Source of the DNA: an uncultured Thermoleophilia bacterium
GTDB taxonomy: Bacteria; Actinomycetota; Thermoleophilia; UBA2241
Reading direction: 5' to 3'
NCBI GenBank assembly: GCA_963832655.1
Contig: CAWHUW010000006.1
Location: 124,403-188,402, forward strand
Length of the DNA stretch: 64,000 nt
This document shows, in pieces, positions 39,005-63,880 of this stretch. Each line of letters starts with the position of its first letter. Position 1 is the stretch's first letter. Position numbers and translations under genes: made by a program. A model generated the notes under the pieces. The model saw only the letters and a list, made by a program, of their open reading frames with translations, did no database searches and was not told the DNA's origin.

Positions 39005-39195
39005 GACTCCCTCCCTGACGTGTCCGGCAGGACTCGCGACGTCCCCAGGTACCGTCGAGGACCCCGCTCTCCACAGAGACGTTGTACCACCGCGGCTGCC
39101 CCACGCCGCCGTTTGGTCCGTTCAGACCGAGGAGTCGCCTGACGCGAGACCCACGCCGCTTCAAGCACGCCCTCCTCATCGATATACTCACGCAC

Positions 39196-40504
39196 ATGTC
39201 CGGCGCCGCCGAAGCGCTGCTGCCCCTGGTCCGCCACCTGTGCCGTGGTGACCCACCCCTGCGCATGCGCTTCTGGGACGGCAGCGAGCTCGGGCCCAGC
39301 GCCGACGCGGCCGGCCGCGACCCGGCCAAGGGCAACGGCGCGACCGTCCTGTTCTCCTCGCCGAACGCCGTGCGGCGTGTCCTGTGGATGCCGAACGAAC
39401 TCGGTCTGGCTCGCGCCTACGTCGCCGGCGAGATCGATGTCCAGGGTGACATCTACTCGCTCTTCAGGTTGCAGGCGCTCCTCTCGCCCGCCGACCGGCC
39501 CAGCGGCTGGAGGGCGCGCCTGGAGGGCGGGCGGCGGCTGCTCGCGGCCGCGCGCGCCACGGGCGCGCTGGGCCGCCCTCTCGAGCCGCCGCCCGAGGAG
39601 GCGCGCCTGCACGGGGCCCGACACTCGCGCGCCCGTGACGCCCAAACCATCGCCCACCACTACGACGTGTCCAACGACTTCTACCGCCTCGTCCTGGGTG
39701 AGACGATGACCTACTCGTGCGCCTACTTCGCCACGCCGGAGACGCTGCTGGCCGAGGCTCAGCGGGCCAAATACGACTTGATCTGCCGCAAGCTCGGCCT
39801 GCGGCCCGGGATGCGGCTCCTCGATGTCGGCTGCGGCTGGGGCGGCATGGCCATGCACGCCGCCGAGCACTACGGCGTGCAGGCAGTCGGCGTGACGCTG
39901 TCGCGGCGCCAGGTCGAGTACGCGCGCGACGCGGTCGCGGTCGCGGGCCTCGGCGACCGCGTCGACGTCCGCCTCCAGGACTACCGCGACGTGGCCGACG
40001 GCCCCTTCGACGCGATCTCGAGCATCGGGATGTTCGAACACGTCGGGCGCGTCGCGCCTCGGCGAGTACTTCGGCCGCCTGCACGCGCTGCTGAGCCCCG
40101 GCGGCCGGCTGCTGAACCACGGCATCTGCCGGCCGCGCGGCAGCCGCGGCCTGTCGCGCGCCTCGTTCGCCGGCCGCTACGTGTTCCCGGACGGTGAGCT
40201 GCACGAGGTCGGCATCGTCGCCCAGGCGATGGCGGGGCGCAGCTTCGAAGTGCGCGACACGCAGTCGCTGCGCGAGCACTACGCACTCACGCTGCGCCAC
40301 TGGGTACGGAACCTCGAGGAGGACTGGGATGAAGCGGTCCGCATCGCGGGCGGCGGGCGAGCGCGGGTGTGGCGCCTCTACATGGCCGGGTCGGCGGAGA
40401 ACTTCACCCGCGGCAGGACCACGGTCCACCAGGTGCTCGCCGTGCGCCCCCGCGCGGACGGCGCCTCGGACATGCCGTTGACGCGCGAAGCCCTGCTGGG
40501 CTAG
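39196..40504 (+). pseudogene. cyclopropane-fatty-acyl-phospholipid synthase-family SAM methyltransferase, one frame change near 40050
   Basis: HYDVSNDFYRLVLGETMTYSCAYF...LLDVGCGWGGMAMHAA...SIGMFEHVG is in one frame. LGEYFGRLHALLSPGGRLLNHGI...LREHYALTLRHW... continues in another frame. Confidence 0.8.
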
Positions 40505-40961: not shown

Positions 40962-41007
40962 TCTGGAGGCGGCGGCCGGAGTTGAACCGGCGATGGAGGT
41001 TTTGCAG
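40962..41007. repeat. attL: displaced copy of the tRNA-Cys 3' half
   Basis: tctggaggcggcggccggagttgaaccggcgatggaggttttgcag is identical to 63803-63848. Confidence 0.9.
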
Positions 41008-41160
41008 TCGTCAGTCGGCGGTGCGCAGGAGTAGTGAGCCAGACGCGATTGTGCTGCACAGTCCAGGTTCCTGAGCGAACTGCATGCCCGCGGGTGCTCG
41101 TCAGTGAGGAACCGTGACGAGGCGTCTTGTCGGCAACGTGTCGGCAGGAATGGCGACGGA

Positions 41161-41832
41161 CTACGTGAGCACCTTCACGCCGAGCCGAACCTTCGCATAC
41201 TCATCATTCGCCTCACGCAGGCGCGAGGTCGTCTCGTCATCAGTCGTCATGCTCATGAGCATAATCGAGTAGTACGGCGAGTCGGAATAGACGGCCGAAC
41301 ACTCGTGGTCCCCGAAGCGCCGGCGGATGACCCTGAGGTGCTCGGGGAATGGCACGTAGGTGAAGTTCTGGTAAACGGTGACGACTGAACCCGGGGCCAC
41401 TCTCCCAAGAAGTGCGTTCCCTTCCTGGTAGCGAACGTGCTTCACAGTGGCTGTTCGAGGTTCGAATCCGGTGTCAGGATCGAGGAAGAGACACTGAGCG
41501 GGCTCGCTGACGATGTCCGCGAAGTACGCATTCCGATCCCTGTCCAGCATGTGCTCGTGCGATCCGTACAGCGCGACCGAATAGCTGGCAGCCATTCGCT
41601 GCGGGAGATCAGCCAGCAGCTCCGGGTCGTGCCTGCTCCTCAGCAGATCGCAGAGACCCAGGATTCTCGGGTCACCGGGGTACTTCTCGGGAGGGTAGCC
41701 GTCCGAGCCGGGGTCGTCTGGGTTCATCATCCAGACGATCTGGAGCTGCTGGTGCCCAAGCGCCTCAACCAGGAAATGCAGGTAGTCCCATTTGAAGCAG
41801 TCCTTGGCGTCTCCGAGGTACTTGCGCTGCAT
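41161..41832 (-). CDS. hypothetical protein (orphan A)
   Basis: 223-aa intact ORF with SD GAGGAGAAG and lower GC. Motifs LGDAKDCFKWDYL and LFLDPDTGFEP could not be placed in a family. Confidence 0.6.
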   Translation of the reverse strand: MQRKYLGDAKDCFKWDYLHFLVEALGHQQLQIVWMMNPDDPGSDGYPPEKYPGDPRILGLCDLLRSRHDPELLADLPQRMAASYSVALYGSHEHMLDRDRNAYFADIVSEPAQCLFLDPDTGFEPRTATVKHVRYQEGNALLGRVAPGSVVTVYQNFTYVPFPEHLRVIRRRFGDHECSAVYSDSPYYSIMLMSMTTDDETTSRLREANDEYAKVRLGVKVLT

Positions 41833-41916
41833 CAGCTCTTCTCCTCACGATCCCGGGTTTCGACGTTACGCTGATGCTCGAGCGTCGTCACATGCGGACG
41901 AGCCGCGTCAAGTCGA

Positions 41917-41939
41917 CTTGCCGGCAACCCGCCGGCAAG
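41917..41939 (-). terminator. 9-bp perfect hairpin between orphan B and orphan A
   Basis: cttgccggc aaccc gccggcaag, with no U-tract. Confidence 0.35.
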
Positions 41940-41952
41940 ACCAATACGGTGC

Positions 41953-42912
41953 TCAGCTCGGCTCGTCCTCCAGATCTTCTTCGTCGGCAAGGTCGCCGGA
42001 CTCACTGACCAGCCGATTGATCTCACTGCGCTCCAGCTGATCCGCTGCGAGAAACCAGTCCTCAACGAGCTGGAGCTCGTGCTCTAGGGCGCTCGCCTCG
42101 GGGTTGCCCGACAGCATGTGGGCGAACCGCCTCGCGGTGTTCACGCACCACGTAGGCACTTCGATGGCATCTCGTGTCTCGAGAATCGAGTTTCCACAGT
42201 TGGCCGAGTAGTCGTCTATCGTCCACAGATCCTGTTGCTCCAGCGTCGACCAGTTGAGATGCGTTGTGAGGGAACCATTCGCGAACCAGATGTTGTAGAT
42301 GGCCCTGGCTGTGTCACCCTGCGCTCGACTAGCGATTCCGCTGGGCCATGCCTTCAATGAAGCCTTGCCTGCACTCGATTGCAGGTAGCCACGTGCGTCT
42401 TCACCCTCCCCGATGAGGCCCGCTCGCAGCAGAATCATGCTTGCCGCGACCTGCAAGTCCACCAGGGGCGAGATGCTCCTCATGAAAGCCTCGATCTCGC
42501 CCTCAGACGCCTGCTCGGGGCGCTCTGGAGCCTCGATCTGCTCTTCGTGGTAGCGAACCGGCTTCAGGAGGAACTCAACTGAGCGGCAGATGAACCCCCT
42601 GCTGGCGGCTGCGACGTCATCCGCGTTGAGCAGGTACTCCAGGTTAATCACCGCCTCCATCATGGTGCGGCCGAGAGCTGGCGCAGAGTCGGTGCGACCC
42701 GTCTCGAGCAGTGCTACATAGGCGTCAAGCAGCTTGCCGATTCGCACCATGTGCGCTCGGACCACCGCCTTCTCGATTGGATCGACGTTGGGCGGGAATC
42801 CCAGTCCGGCTGCCGCCTCAATGCAGCCCACCGCATAGCGCGCCGTCTCGAGGAGAAGTTGCCGAAAGGTCGACCAGTCGTCGACGCGTTCAGGAAGGGA
42901 TGTGAGAGGCAT
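41953..42912 (-). CDS. hypothetical all-helical protein with acidic tail (orphan B)
   Basis: Intact ORF with a probable start at MPLTSLPERVDDW. It ends ...ESGDLADEEDLEDEPS. No family recognised. Confidence 0.6.
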   Translation of the reverse strand: MPLTSLPERVDDWSTFRQLLLETARYAVGCIEAAAGLGFPPNVDPIEKAVVRAHMVRIGKLLDAYVALLETGRTDSAPALGRTMMEAVINLEYLLNADDVAAASRGFICRSVEFLLKPVRYHEEQIEAPERPEQASEGEIEAFMRSISPLVDLQVAASMILLRAGLIGEGEDARGYLQSSAGKASLKAWPSGIASRAQGDTARAIYNIWFANGSLTTHLNWSTLEQQDLWTIDDYSANCGNSILETRDAIEVPTWCVNTARRFAHMLSGNPEASALEHELQLVEDWFLAADQLERSEINRLVSESGDLADEEDLEDEPS

Positions 42913-43021
42913 GGCTCTTCTTTCGCGAGATTGGGTGAGAATCGCTACCGCGGTGGAACAAGAACGCTCCGCTGGGACCTCCCAGCATTCCACTACCTAT
43001 CGCATACATGTGTGGAGAAGC

Positions 43022-43945
43022 TCAATCCGACGACGAGAGACTCCCTAGAAGTTCAGAGAGCGTCATGTCCAGTCCCTTCGCCAGCTTCCTGAGCGTCTCA
43101 AGCCTCGGATCCCGACGGCCCGTCTCAATCCTACTCAGCGATTCCTGAGCGATACCGCTCCGCTCTGCAACCTGCTCTTGACTGAGGCCCAGCTGCTCCC
43201 TCACGCGGCGCAGCTTCAGCCCCATGCGTAGTCTCAGAGCCTGATCCTCGTCCTCGAGGCGAGCAAGATGGGCTGGGTCGACGAGGGCGCGCAGAGCGCC
43301 AGCATCGATGTCCACCTCATGGCCCCCGGCATCGACTAGCTGTACCGCCTGGCCATGCTCGCGGGCTGATGCACTCACCGGCTTGAACCCCACCTGCCTA
43401 GCGAGCGGCAGAGCATCCCACTGCGCAGCTCGATTCAAGCCATCGCCAAACTCGAGCCAGAGGATGCCGTCGATCGCCGAGAACCTAGCGGTACGCACTC
43501 TGTCTGGCTGCAGTCGCTCGATGAAGCCCCGGAAGAATTCGCCCATGAGCTCGAGCTGTGCGCTCTCGCGAGCCTTCTTGGTGCACTGCAGGTCAAACAC
43601 GAAGAACTTGTCGTCGTTCAGCCGAAGAGCGATGTCCGGTTCGGCCAGTCGCCTCTTGTCCAGAGCGGTCCGAACCAAGAGAACGTATGCAAGGAGCGAC
43701 GGCCCCGCCGCAAGCTCGTCCAGAGTCAGTGAGGAAGTCAGCTCGTGCAGGTCACCAACGACCACGGTGCGGTTGTGAGGGAGCCACTGATGAGCCTCCA
43801 GCAGCGATTGCCAGATGCCTTCGGTCCGAGTTAGCGAGAGCCCTTCAAGCGTCCCTTCGATGTGCCGACGGCACCACTGAGACCGCACCGGACTCGCGTC
43901 AAAGACGATGTGATCAGAGGCGATATGTTCAGTCGTCGGTGCCAT
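43022..43945 (-). CDS. DUF2442-like domain protein with C-terminal XRE-type HTH
   Basis: The C-terminus LRRVREQLGLSQEQVAERSGIAQESLSRIETGRRDPRLETLRKLAKGL is a canonical XRE HTH. The middle (IDGILWLEFGDGLNRAAQWDALPL...GHEVDIDAGALRAL) resembles DUF2442. The ATG at 43945 (SD GAGGA) overlaps the DUF4160 gene end. Confidence 0.65.
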   Translation of the reverse strand: MAPTTEHIASDHIVFDASPVRSQWCRRHIEGTLEGLSLTRTEGIWQSLLEAHQWLPHNRTVVVGDLHELTSSLTLDELAAGPSLLAYVLLVRTALDKRRLAEPDIALRLNDDKFFVFDLQCTKKARESAQLELMGEFFRGFIERLQPDRVRTARFSAIDGILWLEFGDGLNRAAQWDALPLARQVGFKPVSASAREHGQAVQLVDAGGHEVDIDAGALRALVDPAHLARLEDEDQALRLRMGLKLRRVREQLGLSQEQVAERSGIAQESLSRIETGRRDPRLETLRKLAKGLDMTLSELLGSLSSSD

Positions 43946-44195
43946 TGTCCTCGTTCCGATCAGTGCTGATGACACGTTCCCAGGCTTCGAGCATTCGCTC
44001 CTGCCAGTCCTTCAGCTGGCGACGCACCTGCCGCGGAAGCCGTCTCCCCGGCGGTTTCGTGACAGCCAGGGTGTAGAGGTCGACCTGGGCAGTGAGCCCG
44101 CCGGGTAGGCCAGACACGTGGCAGTGCGGAGGCCCGTGATCGAAATCGTAAATCTCCACGGTCACACTCCCGCTCTTCTCACGGAAGACGGCCAT
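43929..44195 (-). CDS. DUF4160-family protein
   Basis: MAVFREKSGSVTVEIYDFDHGPPHCHV is the DUF4160 signature. Confidence 0.7.
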   Translation of the reverse strand: MAVFREKSGSVTVEIYDFDHGPPHCHVSGLPGGLTAQVDLYTLAVTKPPGRRLPRQVRRQLKDWQERMLEAWERVISTDRNEDNGTDD

Positions 44196-44215
44196 CTCAA
44201 CTGGTCCTAACAATC

Positions 44216-44235
44216 ATATGACGCTTTCGTCATAT
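44216..44235. promoter_or_regulatory. perfect 8-bp inverted repeat (candidate operator) in the divergent intergenic region
   Basis: atatgacg cttt cgtcatat lies 21 nt from the DUF4160 start codon. The region is AT-rich relative to its surroundings. Confidence 0.4.
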
Positions 44236-44371
44236 TTCCAAACTCTCCTGCCGTGGCTAGGAGGGGTCATGCCAGCTCCCCGAGAATCGCCCCCTGCTCA
44301 TCACGGATGCTACGCAACCGATTCCCACGGGTCCAGGCCATTGGGACGCGCGGTCGTCGTATGCTCAGTGC

Positions 44372-45531
44372 ATGTGGCGACTTGAGGAGAGCCCCTACGA
44401 CCGCGAACGCTCTACCAAGAGGTCTGGGCTGAGCCGGTGCGCGAGGTCGCAAGCGCTACGGCGTCTCCGACGTCTACCTCGCACGCATCTGCCGCAAGCT
44501 CTCCGTGCCGCTCCCGGGCGCGGCTACTGGGCGAAGCCGAAGGAGCGGCGTCCGCCTCGCCCCCGCTCCCCGACCTCACAAGGCTGAGGCCTTTCGCCTG
44601 CGCCACATCGGGCGAGCGGCGAAGCCCTGAGCAGCGCCGCTACCAGCAGGCAGCTGCAGAGCGCCAAGTCGGAGGCGTCGCCGAGTCGTCGTCGCCGAGA
44701 CGCTCACCGACCCCCACGAGCTCGTGGCGCAGCACGGAGCGGCGCCTACGCCGCGCCAAGGTGCAGGAGGGCGTCGTCTCGGGCCGGCGCTACGGACTCC
44801 TCGACCTCAGCGTCTCCCCCGACTCGCTCGACCGCGGCCTGCGCATCTTCGACGCCCTGCTCAAGGCGCTTGCAGCGGCCGATTTCACCGTCTCGCTCGT
44901 GCCGCCGCCGGCAGAGCGAAGACGACCGGGCGCACGCCCGACGAGCGCGAGCGCGCACGCAGGTGCTCTGCCGCGAGGAGCCGCTGTACGTGTGCCTCTT
45001 CGAGGAGGTCGACGTCGAGCTCGACCCGAAGCCCTATCGCCCGCGACGCAAGCCCGAGGATCCCATCTGGTACACGCCGCCCGAGCAGCCGCGCTACATC
45101 TACAGCCCGACCGGCTGCTCGCCCTGCAGATCACGAACCTCGCCGGCACCGGCGTGCGCGGCCTCTTCCGCGAGACCGAGCGCCGCCGGCTCGAGGACAT
45201 CCTCCCCAGGTTCGTCGCCCAGCTCGCGCCCGCCGCGGAGGCGCTCCGGGCAAAGCACGCCGAGGAGGAGCGGCGGCGGCGGGAGTTGGAGGAGCAGGCG
45301 CGCCGCTGGCGCGAGGAAGAGGAGCGCCGCTGGGAGGAGAGCGCCGGCTCGAGCGCCTCAGCAAGGAGGCGGCCAGCTGGCGAGAGGCCCGCCGGCTGCG
45401 CGCCTACGCCGAGGCCGCGCTCGAGAAGCTGAAGCGTCGCAGGACGATGACGAAGAGGCAGCTGGAAGCGCCGCGTCGAGCTCAAGTGGCTGCTCGACTA
45501 CGCCGACCGCATCGACCCGCTCGGCGACTGA
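44372..45531 (+). pseudogene. conserved hypothetical protein (N-terminal ...VSDVYLARICRKLSVPLPGRGYWAK motif, Arg/Glu coiled coil), at least 5 frame changes
   Basis: Sensible sequence must be stitched from several frames. The pieces are LYQEVWAEPVREVA, YGVSDVYLARICRKLSVPLPGRGYWAKPKE, LLDLSVSPDSLDRGLRIFDALLKALAAADFTVSLV and EEPLYVCLFEEVDVELDPKPYRP. They continue with LALQITNLAGTGVRGLFRETERRRLEDILPRFV...EEERRRRELEEQARRWREEEERRWEE and end with ELKWLLDYADRIDPLGD. Confidence 0.55.
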
Positions 45532-45643
45532 CCCGGCTCAGGTCCCGGGGCTAGGGCGTCGAAGAAGTCTTCAGAGTCCCGGTCGGCCCGAAGCTGCCGT
45601 CCGGGCCGTGTGTCAGCCTGTCGCCCAATGTTGGAGGGGAAGC

Positions 45644-46602
45644 GTGGCAACGAACAAGTCGTGTGACAAGGCGGACTTCGACTGGCCGACGTACAAGAAG
45701 GCGCCTCGCCGGCTGACTGCGGCACAGATGAAGGCCCTCTCGCGAGGGCACCTGCGCCCGATCCTTGACTACGTTCTCGCCTACCCCGAAGTCCGCTTCG
45801 ACGTCCGTCCTGGCGGAGCCAATCTCTACTTCGACGGCGGCAGCCTGCTCCAGCTCGAGGGCGGAACGCGCTGCCCCTTCAGGGGCATCTACAACCTCGG
45901 CTACGTGGGTGAGAAGGGCATGCACGTCTCGGAGCTCGTCGACGCAGCCAGCGTGGAGCGACTGGTCGACAGCTTCCACGAGCGCCGCGAGCAGATGTGG
46001 CAGCATCGCCATTCAGGGAAGGGCCGAGACGAACGCCGCAACCAGCAGGCCATCGCGCGAGCCAACAGCGGACGCCCCCATGCGACTGCGGGCGATTTCG
46101 TCATTGTCGATATCGAGTACGACGAACGGCCGGCGCATCTTCGACCTCGTCGGCTTCGACCGCGCCGGCCTTCCTCGGCCCCGGCTCATCTACGTCGAGC
46201 TCAAGTCCGAGGGTGGTGCCCTGAACAGCAAGTCCGGCCTGCAGGACCACGCGATCGACTACTGGCGAGTTCCTCTGCGCTCAAGACGGCCGACATGTCG
46301 GTCTCTCGCAGCGCGAGCTCTCGAACATGGTCCGGCAGAAGGTCGACCTCGGCCTGCTCTCGGCGGACCTCGGCTTCGAGGAGTTCGCCCCCGAGCCGCC
46401 AGAATTCCTCATACTCTTCGCCGACTACGACGTCTGTCAGGCGCAGCTGACGTCCCCGCTCACGCGCATGCGCGCCGAGATCGAGCAACGCCTCGGTGGC
46501 CTCGAGCTGCTCAAGTTCGCGGACCTCCCCGTCGTCGACGACGGCAGCACTCGAGCTGCTTCGCCTGCGCCGAGACCAGATCATGGACTCGCAGGCCTTT
46601 GA
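45644..46602 (+). pseudogene. PD-(D/E)xK nuclease-like hypothetical protein, 2-3 frame changes
   Basis: GTG start after SD GGAGGGGA. The body reads ...ANLYFDGGSLLQLEGG...ERRNQQAIA...DFVIVDIEYDE / RIFDLVGFDR...PRLIYVELKSEGGAL...GLQDHAIDYW / ...FLILFADYD. The D...(E)xK arrangement (FDLVG...YVELK) suggests a restriction-endonuclease fold. Confidence 0.55.
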
Positions 46603-46629: not shown

Positions 46630-47895
46630 TTGCGCTACACGATCCACCGCGGCCAGCACGAGATCGGCGGCATGTGCATCGAAGTCGCCGCCAATGATGG
46701 CACCCGAGTCCTTCTCGACCTCGGCATGCCGCTCACGGCGCCGGATGGCGGCGACTTCCCGTGGGGTACCCCGCAGCGACCGACCGCCGAGCTCCTAGCC
46801 GAGGGAGTACTGCGCGACGTCCCCGGCGTGTTCCCAGGTGACCCCACGGCGCCGGGCGTGGCGGCAATCATCCTCAGCCACTCCCACCTCGACCACTTTG
46901 GCCTCGCCCATCACGCGCACCCGACAATCCCCGTGTATGGGAGCGCCGGGACCATCGCCATCCTCGAGGTCGGCCGCGTGTTCTTCCCCGACGCCGCACT
47001 GCCGGCGGACCTGCGCTGCCTGCCGGAGAACGAGACGCTGCGCTTCGGCGAGCTTTCGGTGACGGCGATCGCTGTCGACCACGCAGCGCCAGATTCGCGC
47101 GCCCTGCTCTGCGAGGCAGACGGGCAGCGGCTCCTCTACACGGGCGACCTGAGGGCCCACGGACGCACCGGCTTTCGCTTCGAGACCATGCTCAACGATA
47201 AGCGCCTCCACGGCGTCGACTGGCTGCTGGTCGAAGGCACGACCCTGGGCTCCTCGGGTGGCACGCACGGGCTGCGAAGTGAGGCTGACGTCGAGGAGAG
47301 CCTGGTCGAACTCGCCCGCGGCGGCGCCGACAAACTGGTCGCTGTGGCGGCCTCGGGTCAGAACCTCGATCGCCTGGTCTCCTGCTTCCGCGCCGCCAAG
47401 CGCAGCGGCCGCCTGCTCGTGATTGACGCCTACCAGGCCTACGTCCTGATGCAGCTCGCGCCGCTATCCAAGAACATCCCGCAGGTCGCCTGGGACGATG
47501 TGCGCATTAGCTTCGCACCGCACCAGGTCGAACGCCTCAAGGCAGCCGGGCTCATGGGTCTCGCACGCGAGATGAGCGTGAAGGGCCGGGTATCGAGCGA
47601 TGAGCTTGCCGCGGACCCGGGCAGCTACCTGCTTTGCATGAGAGCGAGCTACGGCGTGACCAAGCTACTCGACAAGATCGGACCGGAGCGAGTCCTTCTC
47701 GTCTGGTCGATGTGGGGTGGCTACTGGCGTCGAGACCGCAGTCCGTTGCGCAGATGGGCCGAGGGCCGCGGCATCGCCGCAGAGTTAGTTCATAGCGGTG
47801 GCCATGCTTGGCCGGAGGATCTCCGCAGGCTCGAAGACTCTTTGGATGCCAAGCGGACCGTGCGAGTCCACACCGATGCAACAAAAGGCAGCTGA
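46630..47895 (+). CDS. MBL-fold metallo-hydrolase (beta-CASP/RNase J-like nuclease architecture)
   Basis: Intact 421-aa ORF: HEIGGMCIEV...LLDLGMPL...ILSHSHLDHFG (HxHxDH)...YTGDL...LLVEGT...HSGGHA. TTG start. Confidence 0.8.
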   Translation: MRYTIHRGQHEIGGMCIEVAANDGTRVLLDLGMPLTAPDGGDFPWGTPQRPTAELLAEGVLRDVPGVFPGDPTAPGVAAIILSHSHLDHFGLAHHAHPTIPVYGSAGTIAILEVGRVFFPDAALPADLRCLPENETLRFGELSVTAIAVDHAAPDSRALLCEADGQRLLYTGDLRAHGRTGFRFETMLNDKRLHGVDWLLVEGTTLGSSGGTHGLRSEADVEESLVELARGGADKLVAVAASGQNLDRLVSCFRAAKRSGRLLVIDAYQAYVLMQLAPLSKNIPQVAWDDVRISFAPHQVERLKAAGLMGLAREMSVKGRVSSDELAADPGSYLLCMRASYGVTKLLDKIGPERVLLVWSMWGGYWRRDRSPLRRWAEGRGIAAELVHSGGHAWPEDLRRLEDSLDAKRTVRVHTDATKGS

Positions 47896-55555: not shown

Positions 55556-58500
55556 TCAGTGTTCTTGCGCGTCCCAGGGGTCGGTGACCTCGAGGAACGC
55601 CCAGCGGCCGAAGCCGCCGTGGTTGTTGACCGCCGGCACCCACAGGTCGCGCGCCGTGGCGACCTTGGCCGCCTTGTCCTTCTTCGTCTCGCCGGTGACC
55701 TCGACGATCAGGTTGAGCAGATCGTCGTCGCCGTGCGCCGTCGTCGATGCGGACGATGAAGTCGGGGACGTAGCGGCTGCTCCTCGCCGTTGAGGGTGTA
55801 GGGGATCGTGAAGCCGAGGTTGTGGTTCTTCACGTAGCGGACGACCTCGGGCATGTCCTCGAGGCCTGGGCCATCTTCTGCTCCCAGAGTCGCTGTCGCA
55901 CGACCACGTGGGAGACGTGGCACTTGTCGGCGCGCGTCGGCGTAGACCGGCCGCGTCGTGTCGAAGTCGACGTAGCGGGTCGAGCCGATCGGCGTCGTAC
56001 GGGCGCAGGATCGGCATGAGACGCTTGCTCGCCGCCGGTCGCCGGCGACGATGGCCCGGTAGATCTGTCGGCGGCGTCGTCGGCGTGCTCGATCGAGCAG
56101 CAGCAGCTGCGGGAAGGTGTCGTCCTTGCAGATCGACGCACTCGTCGAGCCAGCGCCGCGATGATGCCGAGGAGCTGCGGGAAGAGCCAGGGCTTGACGT
56201 CGCCGTCGTCGTGCGCGTGAAGTAGTTCTCGCAGACGTGAGCTTGGCGAGCAGGAAGGCGACCTCGTTGCGGGCGCTTGGCCTTGAGGTCGTCGAGCGTG
56301 TGGATGCTCGATCTCGCCGACGATCGGGCGCGATCTCGGTCGTGGTCGGGATGTCCTCGGTCGAGAGCGCCATGCGCGAGTCGTCGCTGAAGGTGGCGGT
56401 CAGCCGCTCGGTGGGCAGCTCGTAGCGGTAGCCGAGCAGCGCGGGAAGGTGATCTCGCAGGCGATGCGCTCCTCGAGGGCGCGCACGCGGGTGGGCACGG
56501 CGCGGCGGCTTGGGGTCGGCCGCTGCGCCGGCGCAGGGGATGAACGAGAACGGCACGCCGTAGACCTCGGCGTACTCGGGCTCGAACATGTCCGTCGTCG
56601 TTGGCGCGCGTAGCTCATGCGGCGCAGGCCGCGGCCGACGACCTGCTCGCAGAGGAGCTGCGTGCCGAAGGCGCGCACGCCGAGGATGTGGGTGACGGTG
56701 TTGGCGTCCCAGCCCTCGGTGAGCATCGAGACGCGACACGACGCACTTGATCTGCTCGCCGAGCTTGCCGGGCTTGCCGACGGTGTTCATCACCTCGCGC
56801 AGCAGGTCCTCGTCGGTCGAGGTCGTCGGCGTCGCGGCCGGGGAAGCGGGCGCGGTACTCGGCCTTGAACTCCTCGATCTCGCGCGGCGGCGATCTTCTT
56901 GAACTCGTCGCTCATGGCCTCGCCCGACTCGAGCTGCTCGCAGTCCACCAGGATCGTGTTGGGGCGCGTCGGTCCACTGCCGCCGTGCTCGACGTTGCTG
57001 AACAGCGGCAGCTTGCCCGGGACGAGCGACCGTCGTGCCGTCGGGCAGCGGCTTCTCCCAGCCGGCGATCTAGTCGAAGACGAGCTTGCGAGACGTTGGT
57101 GTTGTTGCAGACGACGATGAAGACCGGCGGCGTGAGATCGCGCATCGGCGCCGGCCTCGCGCAGTCTCTCGCGCATCTCTCCCAGAGCGCGTACGTACTT
57201 CTCGTAGTTGCTGTAGAGGCTGTGCAGCGCGCCTTCCAGCTCGACGGGCAGCTTGCGGCTCGCCGGTCGACGTCCTCGGTCTTGCGGCCCTTCTTGGGCA
57301 GGTCGTCGCGGATGCGCAGCCAGAGGTCGCGGTAGGTGGGCATCGTCGCCGGTCATGGAGTCGTCGGCGACCGGCACGCGCGGCACCTTGACGATGCCGG
57401 ACTCGATGGCGTCGATCAGCGAGAAGTCGGACGACCACCCAGGGGAAGAGCGTGCCCTCGGGGTAGCCGGAGCCGCGCAGGAAGAAGGGCGTGGCCGAGA
57501 GGTCGTAGACGCCTCGACGCCGATCTTTGCCTTGACGGCCTCGAGGCCGGAGATCCAGACGCGCGCCTCTTCCTCGCGGTCTTCGGCTTCCTTGCGCTCG
57601 TCGCCTGCGAGCTTGTCGACCAGCACGCCGTCGGCCGCCTCGTCGACCTCCTCGGGCGGCTTGCGTCGGTAGCAGTGGTGCGCCTCGTCGTTGAGCACGA
57701 CGATGTTCTGCTTCGTGCCGAAGCTCGCGGCACACGCGGCGCACCATCTGGTCGGGCGTCTCGGTGAACGGGCTTCGGTCGGCGCCCTTCCCGGCCAGCA
57801 GTGACTTGGTCAGCTTGCCGGCCGCGACCTTCTCGCGCAGCAGGAAGGCGTGGAAGTTGGTGATCACGATCTTGGCCTGGCCGAGCGTCGTCCCGCAGGT
57901 CCGGCGGGACGAGGTCCATCTTGCGGTAGTAGTTGTCAGGGTCGTTGGGCAGCAGCACCCGCAGGCGGTCGCGGATGGTGATGCCCGGGGGTGACGATCA
58001 GGAAGGCGTCGGAGAACCGCGCGTCCTGCGGGTTGGCGAGCTTGTTGAGGGTCTGCCAGGCGATGAGCATCGCCATGACGACCGTCTTGCCGGAGCCGGT
58101 CGCCATCTTGAAGGCGATGCGGTACAGGACCGGCGTTGGCATGATCGTTCTCGGCCTCTGCAGCTGATTCTCGATCCAGGCAGTCGCCGGTACTTGGGCG
58201 CTACCTCGGTGAGGTAGATGGCGGTCTCGAGCGCCTCGATCTGGCAGAAGAACAGCCGCCGCTCGCGGCCCGGTGCACTCCAGTGATCGAGCAGGCGGCG
58301 GGTGGTCCTGGTCACCCCGACGCACCCGCCCGCGCGCCAGTCTGAGACTCGCTGGCGCACGTCGTTGATGAACTTGTTCTCTTCGACGCGGTCCTGAGTC
58401 CACTCGGTGTCGAAGACGAGCTGCTTGCCCTTCTTCTTGGGCTGGGCGATGGGCACGAAGTAGGAACTCAGGCGCCGCGACTCGACGATCTCGTCGGTGA

Positions 58501-58585
58501 TGCCATCGTCGTCGAACTCGAAGTGGCGAGCGGGCTCGGCGAAGGGCGAGTTGATGACCGGGTTCTCGATGACGACTTCGCGCAC
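55556..58585 (-). pseudogene. res: type III restriction enzyme Res subunit (SF2 helicase plus C-terminal nuclease), at least 12 frame changes
   Basis: Pieces in several frames were stitched. These include [18 protein letters not shown]...[44 protein letters not shown] and VYDLSATPFF. Further pieces are [41 protein letters not shown] and YVPDF..LIVEVTGETKKDKAAKV...WAFLEVTDPWD. Confidence 0.8.
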
Positions 58586-59217
58586 GAGGCCCCTCCACGG
58601 TCTGTTGGCCCCACGTCATTGCTGACGCTCCCTGGAGTGTATAGGACCGGCGCTACGCAGAGCGAGGACGGCCAACCTTCCTGGCCGGGAGGCGCCACAA
58701 CGTAGCCCGTTGACTGCTGCGTCTGGCCCACGGCCGCCCGACAGCGCCTGTTTGATCCCGCGAGGCGCCCCGTCACAGGTCTGCACGTTCTGTACCGAGC
58801 ACGAGAATGCGCCCTGTGCGGCCGGTTCCTCCCGTGCGCCGACGTATGGCCGACCGTCGCCGATACCATACGGACCGTCCCGCCACTTGACTGCAGGACA
58901 GACCAAGTGCTGCGCCGCGTGATTTCTGACCACGGGGGATGCCCCGCCCAAGCCGCTGATCTCAAGCCGCCCGTCGCACAGAGGATGGCATTTCTGTGGC
59001 CACTGCCGTTTCTAGGCTCGGACGAGTGCCCGCCCATCATTCATAGTCATGCCTGGGATGCAGGTGAGGTCGCGGAGAACACGGACTCGGGGCTGCATGC
59101 CTCGAGGTGCTCGCGCCTCGACGGAGACGCGGTGCATGACGATCGGCCCCTCTTCGTGGTGAGACGGCGAATCGATTTCGAGAACACTCTCCATGAGCTG
59201 GTGCGGACTGTTGACAG

Positions 59218-59343: not shown

Positions 59344-60536
59344 ATGGAACGGAACGAGCGTCACGGCAACCCGGACCTTGGTGAGGTCGAGAAGATCGTT
59401 CAGGCGGTCGCCCACGGCGAGCTCGACCCGGCGCCAGTTTCTCGAGCGCGGCGTCGCACTCGGGCTCTCGTTGACGGCCATCGCCGCGGTGCTCGGCGCC
59501 TGCGGCACGGATGAGGCGACGGACGGCGCGACGCCGGCGGCGATGGACACGACGCTGCCCAAGTCGATCACCATTCTCAACTGGTCCGACTACATGTCAC
59601 CGCGGTGCCTCAAGGACTTCGAGGACCAGTACGGCGTCAAGGTCAAGGAGACGTTCCACGACGGCAATGAGGTGGTCTACGCGAAGCTCAGCGCAGGGGC
59701 CACGGGCTACGACGCAATCTGGCTCAACGACATGTGGGTGACGGTCCACAGAAAGGCGAGGCTGCATCCAGCCGCTCAACATGGACTACATCCCCAACTT
59801 CAAGTACGTCACCGATCCGGTCTTCCAGAAGCCGGCCTTCGACAACCCTGACGAGCAGAACGGCAAGAAGTACTCGGTGCCCTTCATGTTCGGCACCACC
59901 GGCTACGCGGCGACGCTGGCCAAGGTGCCCTCGCCGATGGACAGCTGGGACCAGCTCTGGGACGAGAAGTACAAGCGCGAGATCTCGATGCTCACGGCGG
60001 CGCGCGACGTGCTCGGCGTCGGCCTCATCAAGCTGGGCTACTCGCCCAACACGACGAGCCAGGAGGAGCTCGACGCCGCGCAGGCGTCGCTAATCGAGCA
60101 GAAGCCCCTGGTGCTCAAGTACGACGCGATGAACACGCGGCGCAGCATCGTCCAGGGTCTCGCCCTCACGCACTGCTGGGACGGCGACGTCGGCCTGGCG
60201 CTTCAGACCATCCCGCCCGAGAACGTGCAGTACGTCCTGCCCAGCCAAGGCTACATCGTCTGGGTCGATGCCATCTGTATCCCCAAGGCGTCCAAGAACG
60301 TCTACGCCACCCACCTCTTCCTCAACCACCTTCTCGACCCCAAGCAAGCCGGGGAGAATGCCAACTTCACCGGCTACCACTGTGTGGTGACTGAAGGCGT
60401 GGAGTACTACACCTCCGAGCTGCAACGCTCGATGCGCCCGACGGAAGAGCAGATGGCCAACGGCAAGGTCTCCGAGGACGTGGGCGAGTTCCAGAAGCAG
60501 TACGAGCAGGCGTGGCAGAACGTGAAGGCGGCCTGA
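59344..60536 (+). pseudogene. PotD/PotF-like polyamine ABC substrate-binding protein (Tat/lipoprotein signal), about 2 frame changes
   Basis: ATG follows SD GGAGG. RRQFLERGVALGLSLTAIAAVLGACG is a Tat motif plus lipobox. The body reads ITILNWSDYM...GYDAIW / MDYIPNFKY...YSVPFMFGTTG...WVDAICIP. There are breaks near 59428 and 59750-59780. Confidence 0.7.
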
Positions 60537-60613
60537 CGCGAGGTGGCCAGGCTTTCCCACGAATTGTGGAGCTCGCGCGCTGCGGATTCAGTCCGTCGGT
60601 TCAGCAGGTAGAC

Positions 60614-61792
60614 ATGTCCATGACTCACGACGCTGACTGCGCTCAGGCGCTGCCGTTCGAGCAGAGGGAGTACGACGCTCGGCTGCGACGGGTGCGAGAA
60701 GAGATGGAACGGCGGGACCTCGATCTTCTCTACGTCACCTCGCCTCCCAACCTGAACTACCTCACTGGCTACGAGTCTGTGTACTTCGACATCCGCATTC
60801 CCACCGGCCTTGCCGTGCCGCTAGACGACGTGCCGCCGATGCTCTTTGACACCTGGGAACAGCGGGCAACGTGGCCGGCGACCATTCGCGACTCGGCAGC
60901 CATCGAATACGGTCAACTCGACCTGGTGGTCGACGCCCTGAAATCGAGAGGCTGGCTGAAGGGCCGGGTCGGCGTGGAACGATGGACCTGGACACCGGCG
61001 GCGCCGATTAAGGACGACCTCGCGATGCGCCTGGGCGCGTACGCCGACGTCGTCCCGGGCGACTGGACGGTGGACCGCGTGCGTCTGGTCAAGTCACCCA
61101 AGGAGCTTCAGTACACCCGTACCGCAATCGAGATTGCCGATGCGAGTATGGCGGCCGTACGTGAAGCACTCGTGCCGGGCACCCGTGAGATCGACCTCAT
61201 GGGTCTCATGTACGCCGAGATGGCTCGCCACGGTGGTGAGGAGCAGGCGACTCGCATGATGGTGCACTCGGGACCACGCGGCAATCAGATGCACGTACCC
61301 GCAAGCCGGCGTGAGATCCAGCAGGGCGACCTGCTCATGATTGACATGTGCGCCTCCTACAACAGGTATCACGGCAACGTGGCGCGCACGTTCTCGCTGG
61401 GCGAGAACCCCTTCTGGGAGGAGGTGGTGAGGCGCGCGGCGGCCAGCGTGCCGAAGCTTCTTGCGACGATCAGGCCGGGAGCGCCGCTGGGCGACGTACA
61501 GAAGCTGATGGACGCTCACATCGACGAGGCTGGACTGCGGCCGTATGTCTACTGGATCGGGGGGTACTCGTTGGGCATCGCCTTCCCCCCGGAGTGGGTG
61601 GGCCACGTGTATCTCGACCCCCACGAGGGCTTCGAGACGCACGACTTCGTCCCCAACTACGTGACCAACTATGAGCACGTGCTGCACTCTGACGAGCAGC
61701 GGGTTGGGTGCGGGTTCATCGACACCCTCATCATGACCGAGCAGGGCATCGACATCCCGTCCACATCGCCGCGCCCGATTTCGATTGTGTAG
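60614..61792 (+). CDS. M24-family metallopeptidase/hydrolase (creatinase/Xaa-Pro peptidase/ectoine-hydrolase-like)
   Basis: Intact ORF with a creatinase_N-like N-terminus (FEQREYDARLRRVREEMERRDLDLLYVTSPPNLNYLTGY). The pita-bread core reads GDLLMIDMCASYNRYHGNVARTF...NYEHVL. Confidence 0.75.
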   Translation: MSMTHDADCAQALPFEQREYDARLRRVREEMERRDLDLLYVTSPPNLNYLTGYESVYFDIRIPTGLAVPLDDVPPMLFDTWEQRATWPATIRDSAAIEYGQLDLVVDALKSRGWLKGRVGVERWTWTPAAPIKDDLAMRLGAYADVVPGDWTVDRVRLVKSPKELQYTRTAIEIADASMAAVREALVPGTREIDLMGLMYAEMARHGGEEQATRMMVHSGPRGNQMHVPASRREIQQGDLLMIDMCASYNRYHGNVARTFSLGENPFWEEVVRRAAASVPKLLATIRPGAPLGDVQKLMDAHIDEAGLRPYVYWIGGYSLGIAFPPEWVGHVYLDPHEGFETHDFVPNYVTNYEHVLHSDEQRVGCGFIDTLIMTEQGIDIPSTSPRPISIV

Positions 61793-62013: not shown

Positions 62014-62476
62014 CGTCGCTCGTGCTTCGCGTTCACCGCGTCCTAGGCACTGACGCTGGTTGCGCCCTTCGCTGCCAACATTCTTGCCAACAAGCCCATA
62101 CGATTCGGTGGAGATGGTGGCACTGTATGGGGCCGTGTGGAGGCTAGACGGGCACCGCAGACACGGCCTGGTACGACTGAAGATCGTATCGGGGCCGCCA
62201 CTGGCTTAGCTGGTGTACGCCACCCACACAGGTCTTCCAAACCCGTTCTCGCAATGCCTCAGCACGGGGAGCCTGACTCCAAGGTCCACATCGCAAATCC
62301 GCCCAGCCATGTCGTCTGGAAGCAGGCCCCGCGTCTTCGCATCTGTGCGATAGACCAAGAGCACCCTTCCGGTGCACGCGCGCCCTATCTCCCGTGCTTT
62401 CGGCAGGCAGTCTCAGCTGCTGCAGGTCTCCCCCAGAGCGATGGTGATGTGACCGAGAGCAAGCCTGGGAGGCGTC

Positions 62477-63720
62477 ATGCAAGGTCACGTCAGGAAGCGC
62501 GGCACGGACAGTTGGGAGTACATCGCCGACGTCGGCTTGCACGCCGCCGAGCGCTGCCGGAACTGCAGGCGCGGTTCTGGGTCGAGCGGAAGCCGCGCGA
62601 GGTCTGCCCAAATGCGGCGGCAGGCTCATCGAGACCGAGGAGCGGCGGCGCGAGACCAAGGCCGGATTCGCGACGCGCAAGGAGTGCGCAGACGGCGATG
62701 AACAAGGTGCTCGTCGCGATCGAGGAGAAGAGCTACGTCGCGCCCGCCAAACTCAGCCTGCGCGAGTACCTCAAGGAGCGAGTGGCTGCCGGCAATCGAG
62801 GCGACGATCCGCCCCTCGACCTACCGCAGCTACAAGCAGCACGTCGAGTGCCACATCTGCCCGCACCTCGGTAGCGTGCAGCTGCAGAAGCTCTGCGGGG
62901 CGCAGATCAACGGCCTCTACGCGAAGCTCGCGCTCAGCGGCAAGAAGGATGGCAAGAGCGGCCTCTCCGCTCTCTCCATCCGCCACGTGCACGCCTCCCT
63001 GCATCGGGCGTTCAAGGACGCGGTGCGCTGGGAGCGCATCACGCGCAACCCCATCGAGGCCGCCGACCCGCCGCGCATCGGCGGTGACGGCACCACGGAG
63101 ATGAAGACCTGGAGCGCCGAGCAGCTCGAAGGCGTTCCTCGACGCGACCGGGGACGAGCGCCTCTCCCCCTCTGGCATCTGCTCGCGATGACCGGGCTAC
63201 GGAGGGGCGAGGCGCTCGGTCTGCGCTGGGAGGACGTCGATCTCGAGGCCGGGCGCATCTCCGTCCGGCGGGCCCTGATCCCCAACGGGCACGAGGTGGT
63301 CTCAGCGAGCCGAAGACGGCGCGAGGCCGCAGGTCGGTCGCCCTCGACCCGGAGACGGTCGAGGTGCTGAAGCGCCAGGCGGCCAGCAACTCGCCGATCA
63401 GCTCAAGAAGGGCGACGAATGGATCGACACCGGCCTCGTCTTCACCAAGGAGAACGGCGAAGCCTGGCACCCCGAGGTCGTGAGCCGCTTCTTCCGCCAG
63501 GCGGTGAAGCGGTCGAGGCTGCCGCGTGATCCGCCTGCACGACCTGCGGCACACGCACGCCACGCTGGCGCTGCGCGCCGGCATCCATCCCAAGGTGGTC
63601 TCCGAGCGCCTCGGGCATGCCACCATCGCGATCACTCTCGACACCTACTCGCACGCCATCCCGGCGATGCAGGAGGAGGCGGCATTTCGGATTGCCGAGC
63701 TCGTCTTCGCCGCCAAGTGA
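62477..63720 (+). pseudogene. int: tyrosine-type site-specific integrase with Cys4 zinc-ribbon insertion, at least 8 frame changes
   Basis: Pieces in several frames were stitched. These include MQGHVRKRGTDSWEYIADVG...CRNCRR/RFWVERKPREVCPKCGG and EWLPAIEATIRPSTYRSYKQHVECHICPHLG. Further pieces are LWHLLAMTGLRRGEALGLRWEDVDL, EPKTARGRRSVALDPETV and RLHDLRHTHATLAL...ERLGHATIAITLDTYSH, which carries the R..HxxR..Y catalytic context. Confidence 0.85.
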
Positions 63721-63802
63721 CGCCACGCGTCGGCGACATGGCAGCATTCGGTGGCATTCCGGAATGGGCTGATCGAGGAAAGTGCCCATGTGCAGGAGAG
63801 AA

Positions 63803-63880
<78 letters not shown>

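Follow-up and report, generated by a model that had tools for sequence, protein, structure and literature searches.

Cassettes that pair a DUF4160 gene with a DUF2442 gene have been found to act as toxin-antitoxin modules in two experimental systems. In the DhiTA locus of Dickeya dadantii 3937, the first gene (DUF4160) is toxic, the second (DUF2442) neutralises it and the operon is autoregulated (PMC8198452); on a Thermus thermophilus plasmid, a DUF4160/DUF2442 module helps the plasmid to persist, and deleting just its second gene is not possible (PMC12724237). DUF4160 is also listed among the effector domains of the Menshen system in a comparative study (PMC12065111). Here, we analyzed a related gene pair found in a 64,000-nucleotide stretch (hereafter the window) of contig CAWHUW010000006.1 from an uncultured Thermoleophilia bacterium (GenBank assembly GCA_963832655.1), where four consecutive minus-strand genes, designated A, B, C and D, lie at one end of an integrated genomic island. 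A preliminary description of the window had proposed that these genes form a single unit combining a regulator and effectors, toxin-antitoxin-like or abortive-infection-like in nature.

The A-B pair resembles both the DhiTA locus and the Thermus module in its organization, with a small DUF4160 gene placed first, a partner gene overlapping its end, a single predicted upstream promoter, a probable DUF2442-like β domain in the partner and a location in mobile DNA. It differs from them by the size of the putative antitoxin, 307 amino acids (aa) here versus about 90 aa, to which a ~120-residue α/β insert and a C-terminal XRE helix-turn-helix have been added. It also differs in that the DUF2442 similarity of B is sub-threshold and that A fails the NCBIfam DhiT equivalog model. 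Three type II toxin-antitoxin systems, HigBA, HipBA and MqsRA, share with A-B an upstream toxin gene, an XRE helix-turn-helix in the antitoxin and an inverted repeat lying over the promoter, whereas the toxin fold (DUF4160) is unrelated and the antitoxin has three domains in the present case.

We report that the locus is best read as a mosaic at the cargo end of the island, in which a DhiTA-type cassette with an enlarged, DNA-binding antitoxin is followed by two independent passengers occupying a variable slot, a reading to which we assign a probability of about 0.6.

Results

Gene layout and domain composition of A and B

Four unbroken open reading frames (ORFs) run on the minus strand from 44195 to 41161, as the preliminary description had reported. 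Gene A (44195..43929, 88 aa) encodes a DUF4160 protein and putative DhiT-type toxin; gene B (43945..43022, 307 aa) a candidate long-form antitoxin and autorepressor; gene C (42912..41953, 319 aa) a helical protein of the DUF5677 family with an acidic tail; and gene D (41832..41161, 223 aa) a protein predicted to adopt a methyltransferase-like Rossmann fold, from a large family for which Pfam has no model. A and B overlap by 17 nt, again as described earlier, and gaps of 109 nt and 120 nt separate B from C and C from D, respectively. The G+C content (GC) at the third (GC3, 0.70-0.78) and second (GC2, 0.39-0.46) codon positions of A-D shows the pattern of real genes. The lower GC noted for this DNA was also confirmed (0.61 for 41-44 kb versus 0.70-0.73 in the DNA on the left).

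Gene A matches the Pfam family DUF4160 (PF13711) at the cut-off of the model, and the label given to it in the preliminary description can be kept. Weak precomputed DUF4160 matches were found on A homologues, and a DHGPPHCH motif is invariant across 10 of these. Judging from its profile scores, A is a distant DUF4160 member and not a DhiT orthologue.

Gene B had been described as an unknown N-terminal domain joined to a DUF2442-like segment and a C-terminal XRE helix-turn-helix. The last part of this layout is firmly supported: residues ~245-300 (43046..43213, minus strand) match HTH_3 (PF01381) with an E-value of 9e-19, the top sequence matches to this domain include HigA and HipB, and Foldseek places it close to the controller proteins C.BclI and C.AhdI, with target-normalised template modelling (TM) scores of 0.86-0.88 and a root-mean-square deviation of 1.3-1.4 Å. 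The middle part, residues ~143-232 (43250..43519, minus strand), is a β-rich domain that would constitute the toxin-binding part of the protein. Its assignment stems from sub-threshold Pfam matches in homologues, DUF2442 (PF10387) being matched by 8 of the 29 B family members with a best E-value of 0.002, while window B itself has no match; the label “DUF2442-like” is thus plausible but sub-threshold. The domain carries a conserved stretch, FGDGLxR...W..LPF, and has no sequence match in the PDB. The N-terminal segment, residues ~23-142 (43520..43879, minus strand), was delineated by alignment and predicted secondary structure as an inserted α/β domain, for which profile searches gave no Pfam or PDB sequence match. 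The AlphaFold2 model of B has a mean predicted local distance difference test (pLDDT) value of 93.6. A fold search with the whole protein returned helix-turn-helix matches only, leaving the insert and the DUF2442-like domain unplaced by fold, and PADLOC 2.0 matches B solely via its generic helix-turn-helix. NE0471 (PDB 2AUW), a protein of solved structure that joins DUF2442 to a helix-turn-helix, was retrieved by none of the searches and is not used as support here.

Homologues of B fall into two classes. About 40 clusters are full-length (~300 aa), 40-83% identical, and distributed in Actinomycetota and Thermoleophilia; about 40 others are 177-aa forms that cover the C-terminal half only. The alignment shows that the short forms retain the first β-strand (IxFDAxxVxS), and that the long forms insert the ~120-residue α/β segment after that strand. 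The helix-turn-helix fusion, regarded as unusual in the preliminary description, is therefore not unusual within this clade, where dozens of 177-aa and ~300-aa forms exist. In the literature searched, we found no description of the long-form antitoxin architecture or of the operator presented below.

Pairing of A with B and a candidate operator

An A homologue lies directly upstream of B, in its long or short form, in at least 14 independent loci. The pairing holds for every fetched locus (designated by L numbers) with a full B domain match that extends upstream; in L018, L019 and L024, three loci of the short-form or pseudogene type, the match to A is incomplete or sub-threshold. When loci were compared by their domain matches, A preceded B in all 11 that had a full B match and sufficient upstream sequence, four of them carrying a partial or frame-broken A. 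The two genes overlap by 17 nt in the window and in L010, and by 1 nt in L005, and the A-B regions of the window and L010 are distinguished by in-frame indels only (3 nt and 15 nt). Such pairs are also found in chromosomal settings in other Actinomycetota, with no integrase within the 5-6 kb of flanking sequence fetched. The ratio of nonsynonymous to synonymous substitution rates (dN/dS) against the nearest diverged relatives is 0.11 for A (versus L010), 0.16 for B and 0.15 for C, an independent sign of constraint from which the A, B and C families are judged to be under purifying selection.

A σ70-like promoter, TTGGAA-17-TATGAT (44213..44241, minus strand), precedes A and is the only promoter-like site between 40900 and 44500, where 0.4 matches are expected on average from shuffled sequences. 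Its end lies 18 nt upstream of the ATG at 44195, making a TTG start at 44213 less likely. A perfect inverted repeat, ATATGACG-aaag-CGTCATAT (44216..44235), overlaps the -10 element of this promoter. Variants of ATGACG-N4-CGTCAT-ATGACG were found upstream of A in 11/11 loci inspected, despite the proteins being only 45-83% identical. The core 10-mer of the repeat, TCATATGA(C/T)G, occurs 24 times in the 848 kb of fetched loci (both strands considered): 23 occurrences lie 16-45 nt upstream of an A homologue and the 24th is in L138, a contig that carries the same block of genes as the window (see below). Within the window the motif is unique, and none is found near C or D. This is what an operator recognized by the helix-turn-helix of B would look like, and we propose the repeat as a candidate for that role.

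A scan of the region found no terminator-like sites, and the intergenic RNAs fold no better than shuffled sequences. The spacer between C and D contains a GC-rich 9-bp hairpin (41917..41939, minus strand) without a U tail, a possible terminator or attenuator; the spacer as a whole has a folding z-score of -0.22 versus shuffles.

C and D as probable exchangeable cargo

The closest sister islands, L010-L013, align with the window at about 85% identity from 46677 to 43020, two bases past the stop codon of B. Beyond this point there is no similarity until homology resumes at 41147-40980, and the place of C-D is taken by a SEC-C-motif protein (373 aa) and a 300-aa protein. In L050, which lacks D and has no adjacent A-B, an RCC1-repeat gene precedes the C homologue; this homologue is followed by a 69-nt unmatched spacer and then by the sequence found after D in the window (41147-41051). 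Conversely, none of the 86 loci with a D homologue contains A, B or C, nor do they share any recurrent neighbour family. The four genes occur together only in the window lineage and in a near-identical block of L138 and L139; elsewhere A-B, C and D are found apart. A conserved four-gene regulator-plus-effector unit, as proposed in the preliminary description, is not borne out by these comparisons.

The genes found after A-B elsewhere are mutually unrelated and include an HNH protein with a SoFic-like Fic protein, a PD40 protein, a sigma factor, transporters and other toxin-antitoxin genes. Among metagenome-assembled genomes of Thermoleophilia and other Actinomycetes, the HNH protein follows A-B in L005, L006 and L014, and in L005 and L006 A-B are also followed by a 503-aa Fic protein matching the SoFic defence model (E 1e-28) and a Phd/ParE pair. 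No PADLOC 2.0 defence-family match was obtained for A, C or D.

The three cargo arrangements (C and D; SEC-C protein and 300-aa protein; C alone) rejoin a conserved arm beside the attachment site (41008..41147) at the same base, 41147 (5787 in L010, 1455 in L050), which points to a preferred exchange point beside the attachment site. By eye, a DUF5677 resemblance was noted for two proteins, the 300-aa protein of L010 and a 243-aa protein encoded in the neighbourhood of D in L124; BLASTP and phmmer gave it no support, and the L010 protein has no DUF5677 match in Pfam.

Gene C belongs to DUF5677

Gene C, considered an orphan in the preliminary description, matches the Pfam family DUF5677 (PF18928) with 44.6 bits, well above the cut-off of 27.1. 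The match covers residues 76-253 of the 346-aa ORF, corresponding to residues 49-226 of the 319-aa protein. C is a divergent member of this family, with an acidic C-terminal tail and a single close homologue, 74% identical, located in L050.

Gene D is part of a large family predicted to have a methyltransferase-like fold

The term orphan does not suit D either, since a word-indexed search returned 50 homologues and the family comprises 1,675 representatives at 50% identity, 509 of them with E<=1e-10. Whether the single protein or a profile was used, no match was found in Pfam, NCBIfam, PADLOC, PHROGs or PDB sequences, and none of 47 family members gave a Pfam or NCBIfam match. The AlphaFold2 model (pLDDT 92.6) was compared to the PDB with Foldseek, which retrieved spermidine synthase, RlmJ and METTL16 with a probability of about 1 and TM-scores of 0.41-0.51. 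Every one of the top 50 PDB fold matches is a methyltransferase or an aminopropyltransferase (TM 0.27-0.51, with probabilities reaching 1.0), and many of the top fold matches in a viral structure library are methyltransferases as well.

The two motifs singled out in the preliminary description, LGDAKDCFKWDYL and FLDPDTGFEP, proved to be the most conserved stretches of the family. Within the latter, D118-P119-D120-x-G122 is invariant and F123 nearly so, forming a two-residue expansion of motif IV; the canonical motif, (D/N/S)PP(Y/F/W), is not present in the D family. RlmJ, the 23S rRNA m6A2030 methyltransferase, has its key positions at D15/K18, D164 and W195 (PMC3814359). By eye, we infer that the N-terminal G-D-x-K-D-x-F-K-W of D corresponds to RlmJ motif X with D15 and K18, that D-P-D-x-G-F-E-P, located after the central strand, corresponds to motif IV (164-DPPY), and that a later aromatic residue corresponds to W195. 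D resembles RlmJ and other class I methyltransferases in its predicted fold, of the Rossmann methyltransferase type with inserted helices behind the first strand, and departs from RlmJ by having DPDxGF instead of DPPY, by missing the counterparts of the catalytic Y4 and H6, and by its shorter length (223 aa versus 280 aa). D is most likely an RlmJ-like relative of the methyltransferases dependent on S-adenosylmethionine (AdoMet), with an altered motif IV.

Some D-family members bear extra C-terminal domains (P0227, P0287, P0153 and P0142). One such fusion matches the defence candidate PDC-S11 (E 1e-10), with a PD-(D/E)xK-like pattern, DHLFLD...LIEVK, recognized by eye; another scores 27.0 bits with Swt1-like HEPN, for a cut-off of 27.5; a third has a weak DUF4145 match; and two show RNxxxH-type motifs by eye. 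We considered a C-terminal tail common to these fusions, or a tail related to C, and rejected both, as the tails show no mutual similarity save one weak pair and none with C. A gammaproteobacterial D homologue (L001, 5306-8103; L002) is flanked by a CoiA-like nuclease gene on one side and a GmrSD_N + HNH gene on the other, with an integrase and a ParE toxin next to them, in what looks like a defence island. Other D homologues sit amid ordinary metabolic genes. With neighbours annotated partly by eye, the link of the D family to conflict systems is suggestive but not quantified. Viral contigs yielded only two weak relatives of D and no member of the B family, and a phage origin is therefore not supported.

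A recently exchanged block

Two further public contigs, L138 and L139, encode a protein identical to D. The latter, from a short-read assembly, aligns to the window from 43546 to 40979 at 99.88% identity with no gaps and thereby validates the window sequence over C, D and part of B. L138 (ENA ERZ25039503 contig_154669, 22,707 bp, about the length of the island) is a noisy contig with many single-base indels. It aligns to 45848->40951 and then, via one 46-bp repeat, to 63849->60032; these joined ends suggest an excised circular or tandem form. The element in L138 is a relative of the window island and not another copy of it.

Along this alignment, a 3.1-kb block comprising the promoter and A-D (41139..44274, minus strand) is near-identical, with 12 mismatches, none of them in A or D and one in C. 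The flanks are 6-22% diverged: 28 mismatches were counted in the approximately 125 nt of 41015-41138, and 4-24 mismatches per 150 nt in 44275-45600. The promoter and the four genes were thus recently exchanged as one piece between two related but diverged backbones, and this piece has its left edge near the 41147 cargo junction seen with L010 and L050. This transfer is the best evidence for a four-gene module; yet it is a single event of recent date, and the same pattern would be left by a recombination tract with its anchors in conserved flanking sequence.

Next to the block, between 44259 and 46624 on the plus strand, lie homologues of two intact L010 proteins without a Pfam family (406 aa and 349 aa), broken by single-base indels. 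The window and L010 differ by 24 indels, mostly of one base and outside homopolymer runs, over 44259-46551, and the 349-aa protein is split over four frame segments in the window. The preliminary description was therefore right that neighbouring island genes are frame-broken. Between 44275 and 45460, there are 16 single-base indel sites where L138 has the state of the intact L010 sequence, not that of the window; the lesions are thus either peculiar to the window lineage or consensus errors at places of difference between variants. The density of coding-phase changes at 40-60 kb is about three times that of the chromosomal part of the window, with the reservation that lower GC adds noise to this signal. 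A cyclopropane-fatty-acyl-phospholipid synthase-like gene outside the island (39082-40504, plus strand) has a frame change near 40045 (MFEHVG | ASRLGEYFGRL...), so frame changes are not confined to the island. One public sequencing run contained only thin fragments of a related strain.

The earlier inference that intactness reflects purifying selection holds in part. It agrees with the dN/dS values of 0.11-0.16 obtained for A, B and C, but the argument drawn from the intact genes themselves is weakened by the recent arrival of the block and by the indel agreement of L138; that some genes are intact and others broken is not, taken alone, a sign of selection.

The island

The island spans ~22.8 kb and is bounded by perfect 46-bp direct repeats. 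The left copy (40962..41007) is 100% identical to the right copy (63804..63849), which forms the 3' part of a tRNA-Cys gene (63806-63879, minus strand), and a tyrosine-integrase fragment (62876-63370) adjoins this gene. The island edge assumed in the preliminary description is thus real. Given the repeats and the integrase at tRNA-Cys, A-D occupy the integrase-distal end, where 153 nt separate the stop codon of D from the left repeat. The direct repeats, one of them in a tRNA gene, and the adjacent integrase are the features expected of a tRNA-integrated island.

The element further resembles actinobacterial integrative elements of this kind by its lower GC, by its variable cargo at the integrase-distal attachment site and by the existence of a related element with its two ends joined. 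It differs from them in two respects: in the window, the reading frames of the integrase and of many backbone genes appear broken, and no replication or transfer genes were identified in the island. The integrase region next to tRNA-Cys (62137-63827) reads as several frame-shifted pieces; if these lesions are real, the window copy could not excise itself, which is odd beside the joined ends of L138. Inside the island and beside the frame-broken genes, an intact 421-aa metallo-β-lactamase-fold protein (Lactamase_B_2, E 2e-15) is encoded at 46630-47895 on the plus strand. The island also carries, at 57936-58619 and 59781-61792, a ResIII helicase-motif fragment, a solute-binding protein fragment and an M24 peptidase; the latter has a creatinase-type N-domain, and L138 has an M24 peptidase too.

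Discussion

The DUF4160/DUF2442 precedents (PMC8198452, PMC12724237), the same toxin-first overlapping layout, the promoter-like site and the conserved inverted repeat all speak for the toxin-antitoxin-like nature of A-B suggested in the preliminary description, and we regard the pair as a putative type II toxin-antitoxin cassette of the DhiT/DhiA type. In such a cassette, A would be the small DUF4160 toxin and B would neutralise it via the DUF2442-like domain. The conservation of the inverted repeat over the -10 element suggests that B would also repress the single promoter by binding this site through its XRE helix-turn-helix. The ~120-residue α/β insert appears to be a clade-specific addition that could act as a sensor or an oligomerisation domain. 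Carried by a mobile island, A-B would serve as an addiction or stabilisation module, possibly with a function in abortive infection. C, from the DUF5677 family, and D would be independent passengers in the variable slot between B and the attachment-site arm, perhaps transcribed by read-through from the promoter of A, and over longer evolutionary distances only A-B would stay together.

Several results weigh against this reading. A reaches the DUF4160 model with 23.0 bits, exactly the cut-off, and fails the NCBIfam toxin_DhiT equivalog model NF048015, with 18.5 bits for a cut-off of 100. Window B itself has no DUF2442 match at E<=10. For D, the TM-scores of the best fold matches are just 0.41-0.51, and hhalign gives a probability of 0.2% between the D family and E. 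coli RlmJ, that is, no profile-level similarity. Finally, both the transfer of exactly the promoter and the four genes and the single promoter-like site in 3.6 kb also fit a functional four-gene unit.

The view that all four genes form one operon, in which a DhiTA-derived A-B backbone, acting in regulation and addiction, drives the effectors C and D as an anti-phage or abortive-infection system, would account for the common strand, the short spacers and the sole promoter-like site upstream of A, as well as for the fact that only the promoter-to-D block is near-identical between two diverged backbones. The SEC-C and 300-aa pair, or the HNH and SoFic proteins, would then be alternative effector sets in relatives, and the genes following A-B there often appear defence-like; the D-family fusions to PDC-S11 and Swt1-like HEPN, and the D homologue flanked by CoiA-like nuclease and GmrSD genes next to an integrase, point in the same direction. 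We nevertheless hold this view to be unlikely: neither C nor D accompanies A-B outside this block, C is found without D, and D lacks a recurrent partner. Furthermore, the surroundings of C and D contain no second copy of the inverted repeat, PADLOC has no model matching A, C or D, ordinary genes follow many A-B loci, and an Enterococcus DUF5677 gene that was tested is not among the five ORFs reported active (PMC12632615). A bolder version, which we rate as decidedly improbable, would make promoter-A-B a portable platform, a toxin-antitoxin switch derived from DhiTA, whose enlarged antitoxin senses a signal via the α/β domain and controls swappable downstream cargo, D being a new defence-linked modification enzyme (DPDxGF). 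If this were true, the cargo would be a DUF5677 protein and a methyltransferase-fold protein here, the SEC-C and 300-aa proteins in the sister islands and the HNH and SoFic proteins in Thermoleophilia, and the four-gene block would represent a new self-regulated defence cassette with swappable effectors.

Alternatively, A-B could be a control module of the island itself, with B as an immunity-type repressor and A as a partner or anti-repressor governing excision or transfer. B does look like an XRE-type repressor, its helix-turn-helix resembles those of controller and phage-type repressors, it lies inside an integrative element of which a relative has its ends joined through one attachment site, and the HxPPHxH-like motif of A might conceivably bind a metal. 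We consider such a role very unlikely, as A-B pairs are also chromosomal in other Actinomycetota with no integrase in the flanks fetched, the repeat motif occurs in the window at the promoter of A only, so that no other island gene shows the site, and DUF4160/DUF2442 pairs act as toxin and antidote in the two experimental systems cited above. A further explanation concerns only the contrast between intact and broken genes, which might be an artefact, through consensus errors where co-existing variants differ, the block being free of them where the variants are identical, or a matter of age, the block being recent, and would then say nothing on the function of C and D in this host. It would fit the L138 bases at the 16 indel sites, the near-identity of the block between diverged flanks, the gap-free confirmation of 40979-43546 by a short-read contig and the frameshift near 40045 outside the island. 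Against it, a uniform error would not yield phase changes some 3x denser at 40-60 kb than in the chromosomal part, the indels fall outside homopolymer runs, and the dN/dS values versus distant relatives indicate long-term constraint on A, B and C regardless; we consider this explanation improbable. As a caution for similar cases, when an assembly shows a run of intact genes amid broken ones, the cause can be a recent block transfer or the quality of the consensus, and not selection.

Taken as a mosaic of a DhiTA-type cassette and two passengers, the locus extends a recently recognised toxin-antitoxin superfamily, DUF4160/DUF2442, with a clade in which the putative antitoxin has been enlarged by a DNA-binding domain and a further domain. 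The sharply conserved candidate operator makes autoregulation directly testable. The family of D, which is large, absent from the curated libraries searched and endowed with a confidently predicted methyltransferase-like fold, provides a target for establishing the function of about 1,700 sequence clusters.

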